A DNA stretch of 64,000 nucleotides from the IMG/VR virus record IMGVR_UViG_2675903433_000022; one strand, written 5' to 3'. Shown here piece by piece: positions 2,385 to 42,533 of the stretch. The stretch's first letter is position 1; each line of letters starts with the position of its first letter. Both the position numbers and the translations under genes were made by a program. The notes below the pieces were generated by a model. The model was given only the letters and a program-made list of their open reading frames with translations, was not told where the DNA came from and ran no database searches. This stretch comes from a virus. Its lineage: Duplodnaviria > Heunggongvirae > Uroviricota > Caudoviricetes.

Positions 2385-3215
2385 ATGAAGAAAGGTTTAC
2401 TTGCAGTTGCTCTGGCGGCTATTTGCACAATGGGTCTTACTGGCTGTGATCGCGTGGAGCCTGGATACGTTGGCATCAAAGTAAACAAATTAGGTGAAGA
2501 CAAAGGGATCGGTGAAGTGGTTGGCGTTGGTCGCCAATGGACAGGTCTTAACACCGAACTTTACGTATTCCCGACCTTCAAACAAATGAAGACCTACGAC
2601 GAGCCGTTCACATTCCAGATGAGTGACGGTACTGCTATTGGTCACAAAATTGGCGTTGCGTATCTGGTTAATCGTGACAAGGTAACGACGGTGTTCCAGA
2701 CCTATCGCAAAGGCGTAGACGATATCACCGAATCAGATCTGCGTCAGAAAATTGCCGACTCTCTAAACCGTTTGGCCAGCCGTATGACCACTGACTCATT
2801 TATCGACGGTGGTAAGGCACAATTGCTGGACAACGCACTGAAAGATATTCAGAAAGAGATGTCTCCGGTTGGTATTGAGGTACTGAGCCTGTCATGGGTT
2901 GGAAAGCCTGATTACCCAAAAACCGTCATTGAATCTATCAACGCCAAAGTAACGGCTAACCAGCGTACTCTGCAACGTCAGCAGGAAGTTGAACAACGTA
3001 AAGCTGAGGCGAATATGCTACGTGAACAGGCTAATGGTGAAGCTGATGCTATCCGTGCTCGTGCGCAAGCAGAAGCAGACGCCATTCGTCTGCGCGGTGA
3101 AGCTCTGCGTCAAAACCCGAACGTTATGGAGCTGGAAGCCATCAATAAATGGAATGGCCAGTTACCGCAGTACATGACTCAAGGGGCTAACACTCCTTTC
3201 ATTACAGTGAAATAA
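2385..3215 (+). CDS. SPFH/band-7 (stomatin/prohibitin-like) domain lipoprotein
   Basis: Signal peptide with lipobox LTGC; central region and Ala/Glu/Arg-rich coiled coil consistent with SPFH domain proteins. Confidence 0.7.
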   Translation: MKKGLLAVALAAICTMGLTGCDRVEPGYVGIKVNKLGEDKGIGEVVGVGRQWTGLNTELYVFPTFKQMKTYDEPFTFQMSDGTAIGHKIGVAYLVNRDKVTTVFQTYRKGVDDITESDLRQKIADSLNRLASRMTTDSFIDGGKAQLLDNALKDIQKEMSPVGIEVLSLSWVGKPDYPKTVIESINAKVTANQRTLQRQQEVEQRKAEANMLREQANGEADAIRARAQAEADAIRLRGEALRQNPNVMELEAINKWNGQLPQYMTQGANTPFITVK

Positions 3216-3259: not shown

Positions 3260-3310
3260 CTCGTTATTAACACATACAAGAAAACAATTTGTTAAAAGGT
3301 AAAGTTAATT

Positions 3311-4168: not shown

Positions 4169-4921
4169 GTGGTTAAGAAGATGAAAAGAAAAATTGAAGA
4201 ACCAAAAACGACACTTAATAAACATGGGGAAAAAATTCAAACACACCCAGCGTTCGGTCTTGTGAAAACAAGCCGTGTTAGCACGACTGGCATTCGTCTA
4301 TTTGATTCAGAACTGGAACATAGAGACTATATTGAAATAGGCGTTTACGAGGCTGAACTATCCTTGGATAATGAACGAACCCGGCCACAAAGGAGTAGCA
4401 ATAGACGGCCTTTAGTTGAAATTAGACTTAGCCAGGCACAATGGGCTGCTATGGTTAGCAGTTTTGGTGTGGGCGAAGGTGTGCCATGCACTATTTCATA
4501 TAAAACCATTGGCGACTCAATTAGAGTTCATGATATTGCCGAGCAAAAAAGTATTCGACAAAAATTCAACGATCAAATAAAGGCAGCTACGAATAGTGAG
4601 ATTGATCGACTTAATCAGCAAGTATCAGAGCTAGGTGAGCTTGTGAAAAAAGGAAGAGCTGGAAAACGTGACCTTGAAGAACTATATAGAAAACTTGCAT
4701 CTGCTGTAGCTAACCTTCCTGAAAATCTGTGCTTTGCTACCGAATTAATGCAGGAGCAAATGGATGAAATTGTCTCATCTGGAAAGGCGGAGATTGAGGC
4801 GTATGTTGCAGGCACTGTTATGCGTAAAGGGTTAGCAGCATTAGGCACAGAATCATGCATTAACGATGCTCCTACTGTCTCTATCACCAAAATGGAAAGC
4901 GGTAAAGAATTACTACCATAA
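4169..4921 (+). CDS. hypothetical protein (alternative ATG start at 4181)
   Basis: Track ORF 250 aa with coiled-coil-like C-terminal half. Confidence 0.55.
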   Translation: MVKKMKRKIEEPKTTLNKHGEKIQTHPAFGLVKTSRVSTTGIRLFDSELEHRDYIEIGVYEAELSLDNERTRPQRSSNRRPLVEIRLSQAQWAAMVSSFGVGEGVPCTISYKTIGDSIRVHDIAEQKSIRQKFNDQIKAATNSEIDRLNQQVSELGELVKKGRAGKRDLEELYRKLASAVANLPENLCFATELMQEQMDEIVSSGKAEIEAYVAGTVMRKGLAALGTESCINDAPTVSITKMESGKELLP

Positions 4922-4941
4922 ATGTATCTGAGGTACTGACA

Positions 4942-5331
4942 ATGCTTTTAATTCAACCTGGGTTCGGTTTAAAGATAAAAAAAGGACATATGTTCGGTTT
5001 CAAAGAATCGAAACGAAAAATTCTGTCCATTAGATTGCCATTTATCACCATTCATTGGTTAAACAGAGAGTCAACCGATTATTGGTATAAATGTGCTCTG
5101 GCCGCATTTAACGACCCTGACTGGTTTATAGAAAACCACCATGCTGTTCGTCAGGCAAAGAGAAAAGCTAATACGACATACATGAAGGCGTATCGGAAGG
5201 CATGGAAAGAACACCGCGATCGATACCAAAAAGACATGGAGAAACTTGAATTGGAAAATATGGATCTAAGAAGGAAGCTCGGTGAAGCACGGCGAGATAT
5301 TGAAGCATATAAACGTCTTGTATCGGAGTGA
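4942..5331 (+). CDS. hypothetical protein
   Basis: Track ORF 129 aa, basic, coiled-coil C-terminus. Confidence 0.5.
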   Translation: MLLIQPGFGLKIKKGHMFGFKESKRKILSIRLPFITIHWLNRESTDYWYKCALAAFNDPDWFIENHHAVRQAKRKANTTYMKAYRKAWKEHRDRYQKDMEKLELENMDLRRKLGEARRDIEAYKRLVSE

Positions 5332-5333
5332 AT

Positions 5334-5468
5334 ATGACTTTACATTGTTTTTTCAAAGGGCATTGCTTTTCACTATACAGAAACAGAAATAATAATGGGG
5401 CATTCTACATATGTAGTAAATGTGGGAGGACAAAATATCTTCCAGATGTCAAATTTGAAGGTCCTTGA
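5334..5468 (+). CDS. possible small Cys-rich (zinc-ribbon-like) peptide, 44 aa
   Basis: ATG 3 bp after the upstream stop; CxxxxxC...CxxC spacing; below the 60-aa track cutoff, read by eye. Confidence 0.3.
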   Translation: MTLHCFFKGHCFSLYRNRNNNGAFYICSKCGRTKYLPDVKFEGP

Positions 5469-5911
5469 ATGTTTGCATTAAATGGGCAATACAGATGATC
5501 ACAACAGACTTTTCTAAATTAAGTGATTTTGAAATTAACAGACGAGTATGTGAGGCTTTAGATATGGAGGAGTATTTCTTCATACCTGATGACGAAGCAG
5601 ATTTCGATTCGGAGATCCCCACTGACGAAAGAGGTCCTGTTTGGCAGACGTCAAAAAGGGATATTAATGGCTTCCGTGCTTCAAACGGAAATTGCTTCAA
5701 TCCTTGCAACAACCCGGCGGACGCAAAGCCCATTATCGTAGAGAACAGAATTGGCATTATTCCTGCGCCAGAAAATGGATTATGGAAGGCAGCGCATAGA
5801 AAGATTGGTAACGATAATACTCCATACCATATGACTCAAAATGTAAATCCACTCCGCGCCGCCATGATTGTCTTTCTGATGATGAAAGAAAGTGAGAGTT
5901 GTACCGATTAA
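5465..5911 (+). CDS. hypothetical protein (start uncertain; alternative ATG at 5495)
   Basis: Track ORF 148 aa, same strand as neighbours. Confidence 0.45.
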   Translation: MNVCIKWAIQMITTDFSKLSDFEINRRVCEALDMEEYFFIPDDEADFDSEIPTDERGPVWQTSKRDINGFRASNGNCFNPCNNPADAKPIIVENRIGIIPAPENGLWKAAHRKIGNDNTPYHMTQNVNPLRAAMIVFLMMKESESCTD

Positions 5912-17544: not shown

Positions 17545-17650
17545 CATATGGTGGGGGATATCCCCACCTTCTCTTTGATTTGTAAGCCTTGTTTAAACAC
17601 ATAAGATAACAACTTGTTTAAACGCACCAAAAAAGAAAAAGGAAAAACAC

Positions 17651-18793
17651 ATGTCATATTCAACGTTCCGTTTGGGTGCTAATGATGCAACCAAAGAGCC
17701 TATGTTCCTCGGACAATCTGTCAACGTGGCACGTTACGATCAGCAAAAATACCGTGATTTTGAAAAGTTGATTGAACGTCAATTGTCTTTCTTCTGGCGG
17801 CCGGAAGAAGTTGATATTTCGAGCGATCGTATCGACTTCAACACGAAGCTGCGGGACCACGAACGTCACATTTTTCTGAGCAATCTCCGTTATCAAACGT
17901 TACTCGATTCAGTTCAGGGACGTAGCCCAAATGCAACGCTGCTGCCGCTTATCTCTATTCCTGAACTGGAAACGTGGGTTGAAACATGGTCTTTCTCTGA
18001 GACTATCCATAGCCGCAGCTACACCCACATTATTCGTGGCATGGTGGACGATCCGAGCATTGTTTTTGACGGTATTGTTACGGATGAAGAAATCATCAAC
18101 CGAGCGATCAGTATCTCTGCTGAATATGACAGGCTTTATGGGATGACCTGCGAGCGCCAGTCGTTAGGTGAGAAGGAGTTTGAACGTCTGTACGTAAATG
18201 AATATGGCTGGGAGCCATACCCTTTGCACCGTCAGCTTTTCCGCACGTTGGTGTCCATTAATGCGCTTGAGGCGATCCGTTTCTATGTAAGTTTTGCATG
18301 TACGTTTGCCTTTGGCGAACGGAAGTTGCTTGAGGGTAACACCAAAATTATGCGCTTTATTGCCCGTGATGAAGCTCTGCATTGCGAAGGAACTGAACGC
18401 ATGATCCGCTTCATGCGTACCGGTCGCGAAGGTTTATTGTGGAAAGAGATTGCTGCTGATGAAGAAAACGTCATTTACGACACCATGAAATCAGTCGCCG
18501 AACAAGAAATGAACTGGGCAGACTATCTCTTCAAAGACGGTTCGATGATTGGTTTAAACGCGGATATTCTGAAGACCTATGTAAAATACCGAACCAATCT
18601 GGCTATGAATCGTCTTGGCCTGAAGGCTTTATTTCCAGAGGTTACCACCGATCCGCTGGTCTGGATGAACAAGTGGTTGTTAACCGACACACTGCAAATT
18701 GCACCACAAGAGGCAGAGCAAAGCACATATCTGGTAGGTCAGATCGATTCTACCGTGGATAAGGCTTCTCTAAGCCAGTTTGCTGACCTGTAA
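17651..18793 (+). CDS. nrdB: ribonucleotide reductase class Ia small subunit
   Basis: 380 aa; length and iron-ligand region [11 protein letters not shown] consistent with NrdB; directly after nrdA. Confidence 0.9.
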
Positions 18794-26339: not shown

Positions 26340-26930
26340 ATGACGACGAAGACACCAGCCCGATCGCAAGCAAAAACTCGCAAAAAAGCCAAAAACAAAA
26401 ATTCTCCCCGCACCAATCCTACAACGCCTGTCGTAGAGTTCAATCCCCAGCTTAAAACCGTGAAAATCTTCAGTGATGGCTCTTGCCTTAAAAATCCGGG
26501 TGGCCCGGGCGGTTACGGTATCGTTCTTCAGTATCGTGGAGAGGAACGCGAGTTCTCAGATGGTTTTCATAGCACCACCAATAACCGCATGGAGATGATG
26601 GGGGCACTTATCGGGCTGGAGCGTTTGAAATATCCATGCAACGTTATTTTGCACTCTGATAGTCAGTATCTGAAAAACGGCATGACACAGTGGATGAAAT
26701 GGTGGAAACGCAATGGATGGATGACTTCTGACAAAAAACCGGTAAAGAATGTTGATCTGTGGAAGCGTCTGGATGAGGCCGCAAGTCGACATAATGTTCG
26801 CTGGAAGTGGGTTAAAGGTCACGCCGGGCATCGTGAAAATGAAATATGTGATCGACTCGCGAAGATCGCAGCTTTTTCAGCAGCAGATATGCCTCACAAG
26901 AAAGATATTGGTTTTGTTTATAATAAGTAG
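26340..26930 (+). CDS. rnhA: ribonuclease HI with basic N-terminal extension
   Basis: Track ORF 26286..26930, start moved to ATG 26340 after CAGGAG; [47 protein letters not shown] match the RNase HI core. Confidence 0.85.
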
Positions 26931-27031
26931 TAAGTAAGTGTTTACCTATCATTTTAAATCATGTATCTTATCGGCGTCAGGATGACAATGTGTCGGTGAG
27001 ACACAGTTCCAGGATGGAACGAGAAAGGCGG

Positions 27032-27077
27032 NNNNNNNNNNNNNNNNNNNNNNNNNNNNNNNNNNNNNNNNNNNNNN
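27032..27077. other. assembly gap (run of 46 N)
   Basis: Literal N run in the sequence. Confidence 0.99.
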
Positions 27078-27110
27078 CCGCAACTCTTTCTGACACTGGA
27101 TGGGGTCCAC

Positions 27111-27605
27111 ATGGCACGTCAAACCTATTTCACTTCTGCAACTAAACGTCCTCGTTCTTTACGTCAAATTTTGGCCGAATTATTTAGCGGTCGTGTTATG
27201 TCACGTCTTGATGAACTAGAGACTACCGTTCGGTTGCTGAATGAACGTTTAGATAATCAAGCGTCAGTTGTTGCGAACGTGGGGGCGATTGTTGCCTCTG
27301 GTTCTTCACGCGAAGCGAAAAGTACACGGCCTTTAGTGAAGGAGAAAAACAACAAGGACAGTTCGAATGGAAAATTTTCAAAGAAAGAGGCTGAAACCAA
27401 TGGCCTACGTTCTCATTATAGTTTCACTGGCGACGGTAGCCGTTCCAGCCGGCCAGAGCCTTTTGATGCCGGATTCATCCATCACCACACCTTCGTCGAC
27501 GACAATTACCACCACTCCAGTGGAGCGTCCTGTCACTCTGGATGGGATGGCGGTGGATGCGATACCTCAAGTTCATCCAGTTACTCAGGATCATGCTGTG
27601 ACTAA
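27111..27605 (+). CDS. hypothetical protein (low-complexity C-terminus; frame ambiguous with 27367..27618)
   Basis: Track ORF starting just after the gap. Confidence 0.3.
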   Translation: MARQTYFTSATKRPRSLRQILAELFSGRVMSRLDELETTVRLLNERLDNQASVVANVGAIVASGSSREAKSTRPLVKEKNNKDSSNGKFSKKEAETNGLRSHYSFTGDGSRSSRPEPFDAGFIHHHTFVDDNYHHSSGASCHSGWDGGGCDTSSSSSYSGSCCD

Positions 27606-27618
27606 GGCGGTTGTATGA
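27367..27618 (+). CDS. hypothetical membrane-anchored or secreted protein, Thr/Ser-rich
   Basis: Hydrophobic segment MAYVLIIVSLATVAVPA; stop overlaps the next start (ATGA). Confidence 0.35.
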   Translation: MENFQRKRLKPMAYVLIIVSLATVAVPAGQSLLMPDSSITTPSSTTITTTPVERPVTLDGMAVDAIPQVHPVTQDHAVTKAVV

Positions 27619-27803
27619 ACTGGTTTTCAAATCACTTTGGAAAAATTTGGCTGGCAATTCTTGCCCTCATGGCCGCCGGTTGGGTATCGAACATTATAAA
27701 ACTTGTTTGCTCTGGCGATCTCCAGTTTCAGGCTGGCATGACCTTGGCTCGTGTAGTTGGGATTTTTGTTTTTCCAGTCGGTTCGGTACTTGGTTATTTC
27801 TGA
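27615..27803 (+). CDS. small membrane protein
   Basis: 62 aa with two hydrophobic segments. Confidence 0.4.
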   Translation: MNWFSNHFGKIWLAILALMAAGWVSNIIKLVCSGDLQFQAGMTLARVVGIFVFPVGSVLGYF

Positions 27804-27896
27804 CGGCTGTTAGTGCATATGCATTGACCATCTTTGCGTAAGCAATTTATGTAATTAGAAAACAACTTGTTTTGACAAATAATAAAAGGAAAACAC

Positions 27897-28322
27897 ATGT
27901 TAGGTTTCTTCAAAAAGAAAACTCGTAAAGCTGTTATCGAAGTCAAAAAAATGGAGAACCGTGATGCGGTTGAGGCCACCGTGTGTGGCGCGTACATGAT
28001 CTCCTATGCCGACGGCACATGTGACGCAAAAGAAATTGCCATTCTTGAGAAGACAATTGCAGCTCTGCCTGCGTTTTCTCCGTTTGCTGGTGAAATTGCC
28101 CAAATGAGCGCCAATATCCGTGCTCGTTACGAAGCGTCCCCTCGTTCTGCTAATGCACAGGCTATTCGTGAGCTGTCTGATATTGCGGGTACTCCAGAGG
28201 CGGTCGATGTTCTGTGTCTGTGCCTTGATATTGCCGATCAGGACGGCATTGGTGAACAAGAAGAGCAGGCACTGAAAAAGATCGCCCAGGCGCTTCAGTT
28301 GTCACTGGATGCTTATCTCTAA
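27897..28322 (+). CDS. TerB-like domain protein (tentative)
   Basis: 141 aa; Asp/Glu pattern YADGTCDAKEIAILEK ... DIADQDGIGEQEEQALKKIA resembles TerB-family modules; palindrome and conserved RBS upstream. Confidence 0.45.
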   Translation: MLGFFKKKTRKAVIEVKKMENRDAVEATVCGAYMISYADGTCDAKEIAILEKTIAALPAFSPFAGEIAQMSANIRARYEASPRSANAQAIRELSDIAGTPEAVDVLCLCLDIADQDGIGEQEEQALKKIAQALQLSLDAYL

Positions 28323-28480
28323 TGCTTGAGAGATTCCGGCTTGTGATCGTCATTGCTCTTCTGGTGATGGCGGTGTTGGTGGATTTTACGGGAAAGATGA
28401 TGTCTGTCATTTCTGATGGCGTTCTCATTGGTTTGGCGATCTACTTCGCTTATCCGTTAGTTCGTAAAGCAAAGTGTTAA
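28322..28480 (+). CDS. possible small membrane protein, 52 aa
   Basis: Below track cutoff; ATG overlaps the TerB-like stop (TAATG); two hydrophobic segments; hairpin terminator follows. Confidence 0.35.
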   Translation: MLERFRLVIVIALLVMAVLVDFTGKMMSVISDGVLIGLAIYFAYPLVRKAKC

Positions 28481-28482
28481 TG

Positions 28483-28508
28483 ACAAGGGCCAAATGGCCC
28501 TTGTGTTT
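28483..28508 (+). terminator. rho-independent terminator (ACAAGGGCC-aaat-GGCCCTTGT)
   Basis: GC stem-loop followed by a T-rich tract. Confidence 0.5.
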
Positions 28509-28619
28509 CGTTGACCGAAATAGAGAGTTTGCACCTTTACGTTTAGCTTGCTCCCCTTTTATGCCACATCACAATAAAGCCAATAAGAAAACAACTTGTT
28601 TAAGCATTAGGAAAAACAC

Positions 28620-29186
28620 ATGTGCAAGAAATGCAAAGCGATAGCTGATGAACAAAACGCCTTATTCGAAGAAATGGATGCTAATGAACTGGTCAAAATG
28701 TTAGCCATTCTTCGAGGAATAGAAGACGTTTCCATATTTGAGAGAGTGGTTACAGCACTTAATTTTGAGTCCACCTTTGAAGAGCCTACTCAGGTTGTAG
28801 CTTTAGCACATCATTTCGGTGTTCATTATCTTGCTGAAAAAGAGAGAGCTGATAAGTTGCAAGCGACTTTGGATATGGTGAGCGAGACTCAAGGATCTCA
28901 TGACGGTAACAAAAGTGAGACGATTATTGCCAGCAAAGATCGTGAAATTGCCGGGCTTAAATCCTCTCTAACGATGTTGATGTCTGCAATTAACCTTATG
29001 TCTTCTAAAGCAGGTTATAAAATGCCATCACTAAACAGCGACGATCCGATGGCCGTTCGCCAGCTTTTAGGTGCAATGGCCGACCAGCTCGACGACACAA
29101 AGAGTCGCCTTGAAGACATGATGCGGGAGCTCACGCATCGCCATGACTTGAATAAGCAGCCGCACAAAACGCAATACGCACTCTAA
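28620..29186 (+). CDS. hypothetical protein
   Basis: Track ORF 188 aa; conserved GGAAAAACACATG context. Confidence 0.5.
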   Translation: MCKKCKAIADEQNALFEEMDANELVKMLAILRGIEDVSIFERVVTALNFESTFEEPTQVVALAHHFGVHYLAEKERADKLQATLDMVSETQGSHDGNKSETIIASKDREIAGLKSSLTMLMSAINLMSSKAGYKMPSLNSDDPMAVRQLLGAMADQLDDTKSRLEDMMRELTHRHDLNKQPHKTQYAL

Positions 29187-29203
29187 TACTGCACCAGTCG
29201 ACA

Positions 29204-29226
29204 GGGGGCGAAAGCCCCCATTTTTA
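29204..29226 (+). terminator. rho-independent terminator (GGGGGC-gaaa-GCCCCC + T run)
   Basis: Stem with GNRA-like loop then ATTTTTA. Confidence 0.6.
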
Positions 29227-29327
29227 CGCCTTAAATCTGCTGTAACGCCTATGAATGCAGCTTTTATGCCTTTTCAATTTTGTAATAATTACACCAATAA
29301 GAAAACAATTTGTTTAATGGTGTAATT

Positions 29328-31013
29328 ATGAATACAGCCCTTTCCATCATCGACGATGCCAGCTCAAACACGGCTATCGACTATCGTCAGGAAATGAATG
29401 TCATCCACGAAATCGTGGCCGAGTGCGAGAAAGAGATCGCCTTCATGTATCAGGTACACGACTTCGTTTATGGCGACGAACGCCACAACATGATTAATCG
29501 CCTGCTGAGACTAAACCATCGACCAGATGAAGATCGCTCGCGTTTAAATCGAGGTTGGTTGGATAAAGTCGATCTGGAATGGGTGAAACAGAATATTTGG
29601 GCCGAGTACTGGAGGAAGGTCACGGACATGACTAACGTTTTGCTGATCATGCCAGCTTCCCGTCGAGATGAGTGGCGCGAGCAGTTTATAGAGGGCAAAC
29701 AGGAAGTCATCAAAACTGACAGAACCGGCTACCAGATGAAGGTTAAAGAGTTCGTTGGTGTACCGGAGTTCAAAGCAGAAACGGTCATACCCACGATGCT
29801 TAATTTGCTGAATGACAGGCACAAATATCTCTCTGAGCGCGTGTATGGCTTGTTTAAGGCGCTGAGTCCTGCGCACAAGACAAATAAGACAAACGGTTTC
29901 AGCGAGCGGCTGATAATCGCTGACTGCATTTCTGATTTCTGGCGGGACAGCGTTAGCGTGAACTATCGCAAAGAGGACTACATCGACGATCTGCGTGTCT
30001 TGCTTCATTTCTTCGCGCACAAAGAATTTATTACCATCAACCGTACTGCTGAGGTGCTATCAGCTGCGTATCGGGCAAACGACTGCCAGACCGGTGACTG
30101 GATGAACGTCGATGGAAATCTGATGCGCGTGAAGATGTTCAAGAACGGCAACGTTCACTTTGAAATACATCCTGACGTGGCCTGGAAGTTGAATGAGGTG
30201 CTGGCTTACAGTATGCCTGCTGCAATTCCCGCGCCATGCCGAACTGCGCCAAAAACACGGGCACCAAAGCAGTTCGGGTTAATCCAGAAGACGATCTCCG
30301 TGCCGGTTCGCACTGCGCTTCGTGACGGGCGATTGAGCAAAGACAAAGGCGTATGGTACTTCTCTGATTCAGCTCTCCAGAAGTCGCAGGTGGAAGAGCT
30401 TGAGCGCACACTGAGCTTCATTGGCGGCGTGCAGGAGAAAAAGCACTGGCAGTTCCCGTATGAGATCGGCCATACGCTAAATACGATTGTGGCTACCGGT
30501 TTAATACCGGATACAAAATCACACCAGTTCTACCCTACCCCACGCTTGATTGCTGAGTACGTTGCCAGAGCCACTGAATTGAAGCCTGGTGAGAAGCTGC
30601 TGGAGCCTCAAGCCGGACGTGGGGATCTTCTGGCCTATATTAACGCCGATCTGGAAGATGTTACCTGCATAGAAATCGCACCTCTCTTCGCTGATATCCT
30701 GCGTGGAAAAGGGTATACGAACACGATTTGCTGCGACTTCATAAAGTGGTCTGAGGACAACGCAGGTTATCAGTTCGACAAAATCGTTATGAACCCGCCG
30801 TACTCGCTTGGTCGTCATAGAGAGCACACGCTGGCTGCGCTGGGGCATCTGAAAGTCGGCGGGCGTCTTGTAGCAGTATTGCCGGGCACTGCGCCAATAC
30901 TGGACTGGATGACGATGGATAATTACGTTTATGCCAGAGGGAAGTCGTTTACCAACGAGTTTGAAGATACCGGGATCACAGTCAGCGTATACGTTTTCAA
31001 ACGCGTTAAATGA
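29328..31013 (+). CDS. two-domain DNA methyltransferase (amino-methyltransferase, NPPY type) with N-terminal domain of unknown function
   Basis: Track ORF 29310..31013, ATG 29328; C-terminal SAM-binding LEPQAGRGDL and catalytic VMNPPYS. Confidence 0.7.
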   Translation: MNTALSIIDDASSNTAIDYRQEMNVIHEIVAECEKEIAFMYQVHDFVYGDERHNMINRLLRLNHRPDEDRSRLNRGWLDKVDLEWVKQNIWAEYWRKVTDMTNVLLIMPASRRDEWREQFIEGKQEVIKTDRTGYQMKVKEFVGVPEFKAETVIPTMLNLLNDRHKYLSERVYGLFKALSPAHKTNKTNGFSERLIIADCISDFWRDSVSVNYRKEDYIDDLRVLLHFFAHKEFITINRTAEVLSAAYRANDCQTGDWMNVDGNLMRVKMFKNGNVHFEIHPDVAWKLNEVLAYSMPAAIPAPCRTAPKTRAPKQFGLIQKTISVPVRTALRDGRLSKDKGVWYFSDSALQKSQVEELERTLSFIGGVQEKKHWQFPYEIGHTLNTIVATGLIPDTKSHQFYPTPRLIAEYVARATELKPGEKLLEPQAGRGDLLAYINADLEDVTCIEIAPLFADILRGKGYTNTICCDFIKWSEDNAGYQFDKIVMNPPYSLGRHREHTLAALGHLKVGGRLVAVLPGTAPILDWMTMDNYVYARGKSFTNEFEDTGITVSVYVFKRVK

Positions 31014-42418: not shown

Positions 42419-42533
42419 CATATAGACACAATCCCTTCTGATTTACACAGTACCTAAAACAATTTGTTTTCTGCCTTTTGTTGATGGAGATAATAAACCA
42501 CATAAGAAAACAACTTGTTTTGGAGTGGTTGAA

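Follow-up and report, generated by a model that had tools for sequence, protein, structure and literature searches.

TerB domains are encountered in the ter operons, in the E. coli protein DjlA, and in the anti-phage systems Shango and Bunzi, the latter two reportedly described by Millman and colleagues in 2022. The ter operons (terZABCDE(F), as in R478, pKL53-L and K. pneumoniae) are linked to tellurite, colicin and phage resistance, and the R478 operon is cited as conferring all three. A complex of TerB with TerC at the inner membrane has been reported (PMC12054061 and PMC11003894; Turkovicova 2016 as cited), as has membrane association of TerB (Alekhina 2011, as cited). The minimal tellurite-resistance unit comprises TerC and TerD together with TerZ or TerA, and not TerB (PMC12054061, PMC11003894). 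DjlA is built from a transmembrane (TM) helix, a TerB-like domain and a J domain, in which a short anchor keeps the TerB-like domain on the cytoplasmic side of the inner membrane. The TerB domains of Shango and Bunzi have been proposed to act in membrane surveillance.

The phage genes closest to the locus described here are tciA, tciB and tciC of phage P1, reportedly annotated by Lobocka and colleagues in 2004. CRISPRi knock-down of these three genes left P1 plaque formation intact (PMC10695390). The tci operon is variable; it is missing from roughly half the members of one P1-like subgroup (PMC9603915), so that any role of the pair is accessory. Authors working on D6-like, N4-like and PMBT3 phages interpreted a lone terB as coming from an incomplete operon and noted that its function needs testing. 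Our literature search found no paper testing the function of the phage tciA-tciB pair. An earlier reading of the present DNA, made from the letters alone (the sequence-only reading), had made the same statement about function; it still holds, and the papers found present the phage homologues as untested.

The pair lies in the 64,000-nt stretch of DNA that was analysed (the window), which we assign by nucleotide identity to an SSU5/Cyrano-like E. coli phage-plasmid. This region shares 98-99% identity with Escherichia phages CMS-2020a and Cyrano (phage-plasmids of ~108 kb) and 78-79% with SSU5-like Klebsiella phage-plasmids. In the Cyrano annotation the two genes appear as 'P1 TciA-like' and 'P1 TciB-like' with function unknown, and PGAP names them 'tellurite/colicin resistance protein' (or 'TerB family') and 'DUF3927 family protein'. 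The 653-bp cassette was detected in 209 of 5,426 complete E. coli genomes at 213 places, 211 of them on plasmids of ~106-120 kb. PLSDB contains it in 416 plasmids, the majority of them from Klebsiella and Escherichia; NCBI already holds proteins 100% identical to both TciA and TciB. The pair is not an unrecognised one: a homologue of P1 tciA-tciB, it is named in P1, annotated in Cyrano and in more than 200 E. coli genomes, and routinely annotated on hundreds of plasmid-prophages, with both genes recorded by RefSeq. The module is accessory and ordinary, and its carrier is a common type of E. coli phage-plasmid.

The setting of the cassette is a DNA-metabolism and accessory region with no lysis genes near it, and no tRNA genes were found in the window. 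The neighbours of tciAB encode small proteins without assigned function. Just upstream of the putative operator described below, a 62-aa hydrophobic ORF (27615-27803, + strand) belongs to phrog_6006; its homologue is present but unannotated in Klebsiella phage ST13-OXA48phi12.3 (L003, roughly 1210-1400), and in one public assembly this ORF is fused in frame with TciA (protein P0025). A run of 46 N (27032-27077) lies ~35 nt upstream of a 164-aa ORF (27111..27605). The same phage-plasmid lineage also encodes a stomatin-like protein (CYRAN_56-57 of Cyrano, roughly 4800-5850 in the window), and on one metagenomic contig a gene for a Band_7/stomatin-like membrane protein is the second gene after a divergent TerB-DUF3927 pair (L115:942-1820).

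The first gene, tciA (27897..28322, + strand), encodes an acidic TerB-fold protein of 141 aa (pI 4.8). It has an ATG start, a TAA stop at 28320-28322 and the Shine-Dalgarno sequence AGGA at 27887..27890 (+), 6 nt before the ATG, with an anti-SD duplex of -5.6 kcal/mol. The TerB-family similarity proposed in the sequence-only reading was confirmed by profile methods. TciA matches the Pfam TerB family (PF05099) at 34 bits (cut-off 24.4, E 3.9e-8, residues 27-136), a match shared by all 16 phage TciA relatives, and phrog_632 at E 7e-62; it is 78% identical to TciA of P1. A profile of 16 phage TciA-like proteins recovered the solved K. pneumoniae TerB structure (2JXU_A) at E 4.5e-18, with profile positions 13-138 aligned to chain residues 19-145, i.e. 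near full length, and 2OU3 at E 7.6e-5. The TerB structure was found with the profile search only, a single-sequence phmmer search of TciA against the PDB giving no match, and no NCBIfam model exists for TciA or TciB. The AF2 model of TciA, built with 30 homologues, is confident (pLDDT 88.4, pTM 0.82) and shows six helices in a TerB-like, all-helical fold; pLDDT falls below 50 in residues 1-12 only, and residues 1-21 have no regular secondary structure.

Two ADGxxxxxE repeats are kept in the alignment of 16 phage TciA relatives, which extends down to 30% identity. Little or no variation is seen at D39, G40 and E46 of the first repeat or at D116, G117 and E122 of the second, and the repeats align to the DG...E motifs of 2JXU. 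The duplicated motif may supply metal-binding acidic residues. The other element kept across the 16 relatives is a basic N-terminal tail, which reads MLGFFKKKTRK in the TciA of the window. The charge of TciA is split, with seven K/R among residues 1-20 and a pI of 4.2 for residues 21-141. These data show TciA to be a soluble and acidic protein that has the TerB fold over its full length, preceded by a conserved basic tail.

The second gene, tciB (28322..28480, + strand), starts with an ATG that overlaps the tciA stop and encodes a DUF3927 peptide of 52 aa. TciB matches Pfam DUF3927 (PF13064) over residues 4-50 of 52 at 46.6 bits (cut-off 25, E 3.4e-12) and phrog_1470, 'TciB-like', at E 1.4e-21. 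It fits the DUF3927 pattern of ~50 aa with two hydrophobic segments and a D-F-T...S...D-G core, as judged by alignment and hydropathy scan. The segments cover about residues 7-20 and 34-47, the ends of the peptide are basic, and the short loop between the segments carries D21 and D32. Since the ends are basic and the loop bears these acidic residues, the positive-inside rule predicts a two-TM hairpin with both termini cytoplasmic, in line with the two-TM character proposed earlier for this peptide. Across 12 phage homologues, down to 25% identity, residues R6, D21, S28, D32, G33, P45 and K48 are near-invariant. The dN/dS of tciB is 0.20-0.40 in comparisons where dS is not saturated (0.20 versus the Klebsiella copy and 0.24 versus Cyrano), showing purifying selection. 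A TerC fragment or relative was also considered as the identity of TciB and rejected (hhalign probability 0.07%).

Short ORFs are plentiful in the window: 91 with a length of 30 aa or more were counted within 8 kb, and a length of 52 aa is by itself not above chance. It could thus be asked whether the TerB-like gene alone is real and the second reading frame accidental. This explanation is effectively refuted, and we give it almost no weight, given that the peptide matches both Pfam and PHROG families, has a dN/dS of 0.2-0.4, retains its motif to 25-40% identity across unrelated phage types and holds an invariant position behind TerB. Because of the DUF3927 match, PHROG 1470, the dN/dS and the invariant synteny, we treat the 52-aa ORF as a real gene. 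The sequence-only reading had described it as missed by the ORF track; it is absent from that list, but this is a length-threshold effect only, and the gene is annotated by RefSeq and in phage Cyrano.

The stop codon of tciA and the start codon of tciB share one base in the string TAATG. The SD-like match before tciB is weak, with a duplex of -3.1 kcal/mol versus -5.6 for tciA, which fits coupled translation; the proposal of translational coupling via TAATG is thus upheld as a likely property of the pair. Three nucleotides past the tciB stop begins an intrinsic terminator (28483..28512, + strand), identified by a terminator scan, whose hairpin (28483..28504) has a 9-bp stem with six G-C pairs and a 4-nt loop and is followed by a T-rich tail, GTTTCGTT. 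Its RNA fold reaches -21.7 kcal/mol (z = -5.85 versus shuffles), and the Klebsiella relative keeps the terminator with one compensatory change of an A-T to a G-C pair; a clean hairpin terminator after the pair had been noted in the sequence-only reading, and these values bear it out. Upstream of the pair, a sigma-70 promoter scan gave 2 sites versus 3.5 expected from shuffles, and no convincing -35/-10 elements were seen by eye. Since no sigma-70 promoter rises above chance, the timing of tciAB expression is deduced from context only. The yybP-ykoY element precedes TerC-family genes. No riboswitch of this kind was found in the Rfam scan of 26900-29400, which returned only RAGATH-8 (18 bits versus a gathering score of 86.7) and HOTAIR_3, both at chance level and well short of their gathering scores.

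A perfect 15-nt palindrome with 7-bp arms, AAAACAACTTGTTTT, occupies 27859..27873, 24 nt upstream of the tciA ATG, and is the putative operator of this gene. Its 13-nt core, AAACAAnTTGTTT, occurs at 16 sites in the window (at most one mismatch) versus 0.16 in shuffles. A palindrome scan placed these cores at 3282, 17607, 27860, 28589, 29303, 32211, 37453 and 42457, and further at 42508, 43394, 44588, 45073, 45975, 46739, 55853 and 55878. Most copies lie 12-32 nt upstream of start codons on the + strand, a conserved ATAAT(T/A)AACACC...AAGA stretch often precedes them, and some promoters have a second copy ~50 nt upstream. In the Klebsiella relative the palindrome upstream of tciA is retained; nucleotide similarity begins there, with none alignable further upstream. 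The palindrome looks like the operator of one phage regulator acting on many early or accessory genes, and we infer that tciAB forms part of the phage's own regulon. The pair can be described from its sequence signals as a self-contained two-gene cassette consisting of putative operator, SD, tciA, tciB and terminator.

The gene after tciAB (28620..29186, 188 aa, phrog_5508) has its own copy of the palindrome. A near-identical leader of the form ...AAACAAnTTGTTT...GGAAAAACACATG is common to tciA, to this gene (28575-28622) and to a gene near 17640 (17607-17655), which suggests that promoter-leader cassettes were duplicated or recombined.

The association of TerB with DUF3927 extends well beyond the phage-plasmids. 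We compared 16 diverse phage TerB loci, SSU5-like, P1, P7, lambdoid, N4-like, Erwinia jumbo, Pseudomonas, Pantoea and Vibrio phages among them. At 12 of these loci a DUF3927-like peptide starts between -8 and +4 nt from the TerB stop. The four exceptions are two Pseudomonas phages, one Vibrio phage and PMBT3. A different small membrane protein follows TerB in Pseudomonas phages AF and Zuri, a full gene of the TerC/Alx family adjoins TerB in Vibrio phage MS02 (L010:375-1394), and PMBT3 has TerB without a membrane partner. The partner in AF and Zuri is ~70 aa long with one TM helix, carries the motif C..YG.QTERET.YA.FVGCMV (L015:1932-2153 and L016:1943-2146) and has no match in Pfam.

The reverse search, starting from TciB, gave the same picture. 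A 6-member subset of the TciB alignment was used to gather 91 loci from IMG/VR and GTDB genomes, and in 88 of them a TerB-like ORF lies directly upstream of tciB with a 1- or 4-nt overlap. The remaining three end at a contig edge; all 88 with enough upstream sequence are paired. An exhaustive search with the 52-aa peptide yielded 16 cluster representatives, while a word-indexed search reached only relatives of at least 87% identity, and the same arrangement was seen in all six divergent DUF3927 cluster representatives, with the TerB gene frameshifted in one. Virulent N4-like and jumbo phages also carry the TerB-DUF3927 module. Outside the present phage-plasmid group the pair is found in operons that are expressed in lytic development, namely the C1-repressed ban operon in P1, the stretch between Q and the lysis (holin/endolysin) genes in lambdoid phages and the nucleotide-metabolism region in N4-like phages. 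The sequence comparison thus shows that TerB is almost never solitary in phages: it comes with a coupled hairpin of ~50 aa or, in rare cases, with TerC or a different membrane protein. The functional unit in phages would accordingly be a membrane-tethered TerB pair and not a remnant of a ter operon.

In some prophages an intact overlapping tciB stands behind a 5'-truncated tciA, so full-length TciA is not always required. The truncated gene corresponds to the 3' half of tciA, from near ...RYEA(S/P)PRSAN (L063, L069, L087 at about 2750-3010, and L018). This half matches phrog_9865 (74 aa), and a similar breakpoint occurs in two different contexts. In L063 the truncated tciA directly follows a Met-CAT/Arg-TCG/Arg-TCT tRNA cluster and is itself followed by intact tciB. 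More generally, tciAB adjoins tRNA genes in many other phages, including P1, P7, lambdoid and jumbo phages, a proximity on which the authors of the D6-like plasmid-prophage study also remarked. Loci next to tRNA genes include P1 (L002), P7 (L007), JLK-2012 (L006), ChrisDB (L008) and ZY21 (L009); adjacency was seen in 8 of 24 further loci scanned, and L018, L023, L025, L063, L071, L074 and L104 are among the tRNA-linked ones.

P1 and P7 carry different TerB types, P1 TciA being 78% and P7 TerB 35% identical to the window protein, whereas from residue 17 onward their TciB peptides differ at a single position (L002:3426-3587 versus L007:1935-2096). Since the TerB types differ and the TciB peptides are near-identical beyond that point, a recombination junction lies inside tciB. 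The family also contains artefactual or frameshifted read-through database proteins (P0113, P0132, P0021, P0025 and P0008), of which P0113 is a 196-aa TciA-TciB fusion and others include N-terminally extended TciA or TciB; such proteins could be mistaken for domain fusions.

A membrane partner beside TerB, be it DUF3927, another small membrane protein or TerC, is a common theme of these loci, and we propose a mechanism built on it. Coupled translation would produce TciA and TciB in fixed proportion, and TciB would tether TciA to the cytoplasmic face of the inner membrane. The tethered TciA-TciB would then be a minimal counterpart of TerB-TerC, or of DjlA with its anchor and TerB-like domain in one chain. 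From the obligate pairing, the reported TerB-TerC complex, the charge distribution of both proteins and the weak SD before tciB, we consider synthesis in fixed proportion and tethering by TciB, as a minimal TerB-TerC counterpart, to be probable. AF2 on the natural frameshift TciA-TciB fusion P0113, used as a stand-in for the complex, produced a poor and uninformative model (pLDDT 63.6, pTM 0.39).

The second part of the proposal concerns timing and effect. The complex would act while phage genes are expressed, as suggested by an operator common to many genes, by the place of the pair in the ban operon of P1, by its place in the lambdoid late operon after Q and by its presence in virulent N4-like and jumbo phages. 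In the infected cell it would buffer or monitor the inner membrane, either its state or its cations. Pore-forming colicins and superinfecting phages are example threats, and tellurite resistance as such would not be conferred. Action on inner-membrane state or cations during phage gene expression is put forward tentatively, as a possibility that we would not favour over its negation. For the explanation as a whole, a tethered tciAB pair acting during phage gene expression, we see the case as evenly balanced.

Several other functions would also be compatible with parts of these data. The pair might be a determinant of lysogenic conversion, expressed in the plasmid-prophage state and giving the host resistance to tellurite and/or colicin. 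The TerB homology, the tellurite, phage and colicin resistance conferred by the R478 ter operon, the pair's own terminator, its widespread plasmid-prophage carrier and the database name 'tellurite/colicin resistance protein' all agree with such a role, but this name rests on homology only, the window has one ter-type gene with neither TerC nor a second TerB, and the published minimal tellurite unit is TerC-TerD with TerZ or TerA, not TerB. Virulent phages, in which lysogeny never occurs, carry the module as well. With no further ter gene in the TerC and TerB searches or in the Cyrano annotation, and with virulent carriers, we regard a resistance determinant as improbable. The presence of virulent carriers also bears on a toxin-antitoxin or abortive-infection system in which TciB would be a membrane-depolarising toxin that TciA restrains or triggers: strictly virulent N4-like and jumbo phages would have little use for addiction or abortive infection. 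A small hydrophobic peptide coupled directly after a soluble partner on plasmids and prophages is what such a system might look like, and TerB domains do occur in Shango and Bunzi, for which membrane surveillance was proposed, but neither protein matches a PADLOC model, and prophages lacking the 5' half of tciA retain an intact tciB. The harmless knock-down of tciA in P1 is a weak argument against this system, CRISPRi being polar. With virulent carriers, no match to a defence model and intact tciB behind 5'-truncated tciA, this system is unlikely.

A contribution to the timing of lysis would be suggested by the place of the lambdoid pair between Q and the holin/endolysin genes, and by the predicted two-TM, N-in/C-in topology of TciB with its basic C-terminus; TciB would be a class-II-holin-like or antiholin-like protein modulated by TciA. 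This holin-like reading draws on the predicted two-TM topology only. Against it, TciB matches no holin family in Pfam or PHROG, the window cassette lies in a DNA-metabolism/accessory region and not beside lysis genes, Fostie has its own holin and endolysin downstream, and neither the D21/S28/D32 motif nor an obligate TerB partner is a holin feature. An accessory role in lysis timing therefore seems very unlikely. Returning to the tethered pair, its broadest version would make TerB plus the DUF3927 hairpin a minimal, self-sufficient device for membrane surveillance or exclusion, deployed during infection by temperate phages, phage-plasmids, N4-like and jumbo phages alike. We hold this version to be doubtful, although, if true, the strict two-gene architecture would be the simplest experimental handle on the biochemical function of TerB. 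The pair offers a compact, testable system for what TerB domains do.

Compared with the named systems, Shango and Bunzi have in common with tciAB the TerB-type domain. They are found in defence islands, whereas tciAB is carried by phages, including virulent ones, without ATPase or helicase partners, and no family of PADLOC-DB v2, which includes Shango and Bunzi, matches TciA or TciB at E <= 1. The phage-defence context that the sequence-only reading had associated with TerB-like modules is not supported here, considering the lack of a PADLOC match and of ATPase/helicase partners and the occurrence of the module in strictly virulent phages. DjlA combines its anchor and TerB-like domain in one polypeptide with a J-domain output; in the window, two coupled genes are used, with no further domain.

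With the ter operons the locus shares the TerB fold of TciA and the position of this gene beside a membrane-protein gene. However, TerC of ter operons is roughly 340 aa in length, whereas the partner in the window is a 52-aa hairpin without detectable TerC homology. No TerC-like sequence was found in the window by tblastn (best E 3.6), the window has one TerB-like ORF with no second TerB or DUF3927 gene, and no other ter genes occur over 50 kb of the 98%-identical Cyrano annotation.

The closest relative is the P1 pair (GenBank AF234172), to which we assign the window pair as orthologous on the basis of family, identity and gene order. TciB belongs to the same Pfam family in both and is 38% identical, tciA stands directly before tciB with a 1-nt overlap (TGATG in P1 and TAATG in the window), and function is assigned 'by homology' only in both. 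P1 also has tciC, which is missing in the window, where the terminator follows tciB directly. Finally, the P1 pair resides in the C1-repressed ban operon among tRNA genes, whereas the window pair, with neither the ban operon nor tRNA genes, appears as a stand-alone cassette behind the putative palindromic operator of this phage.
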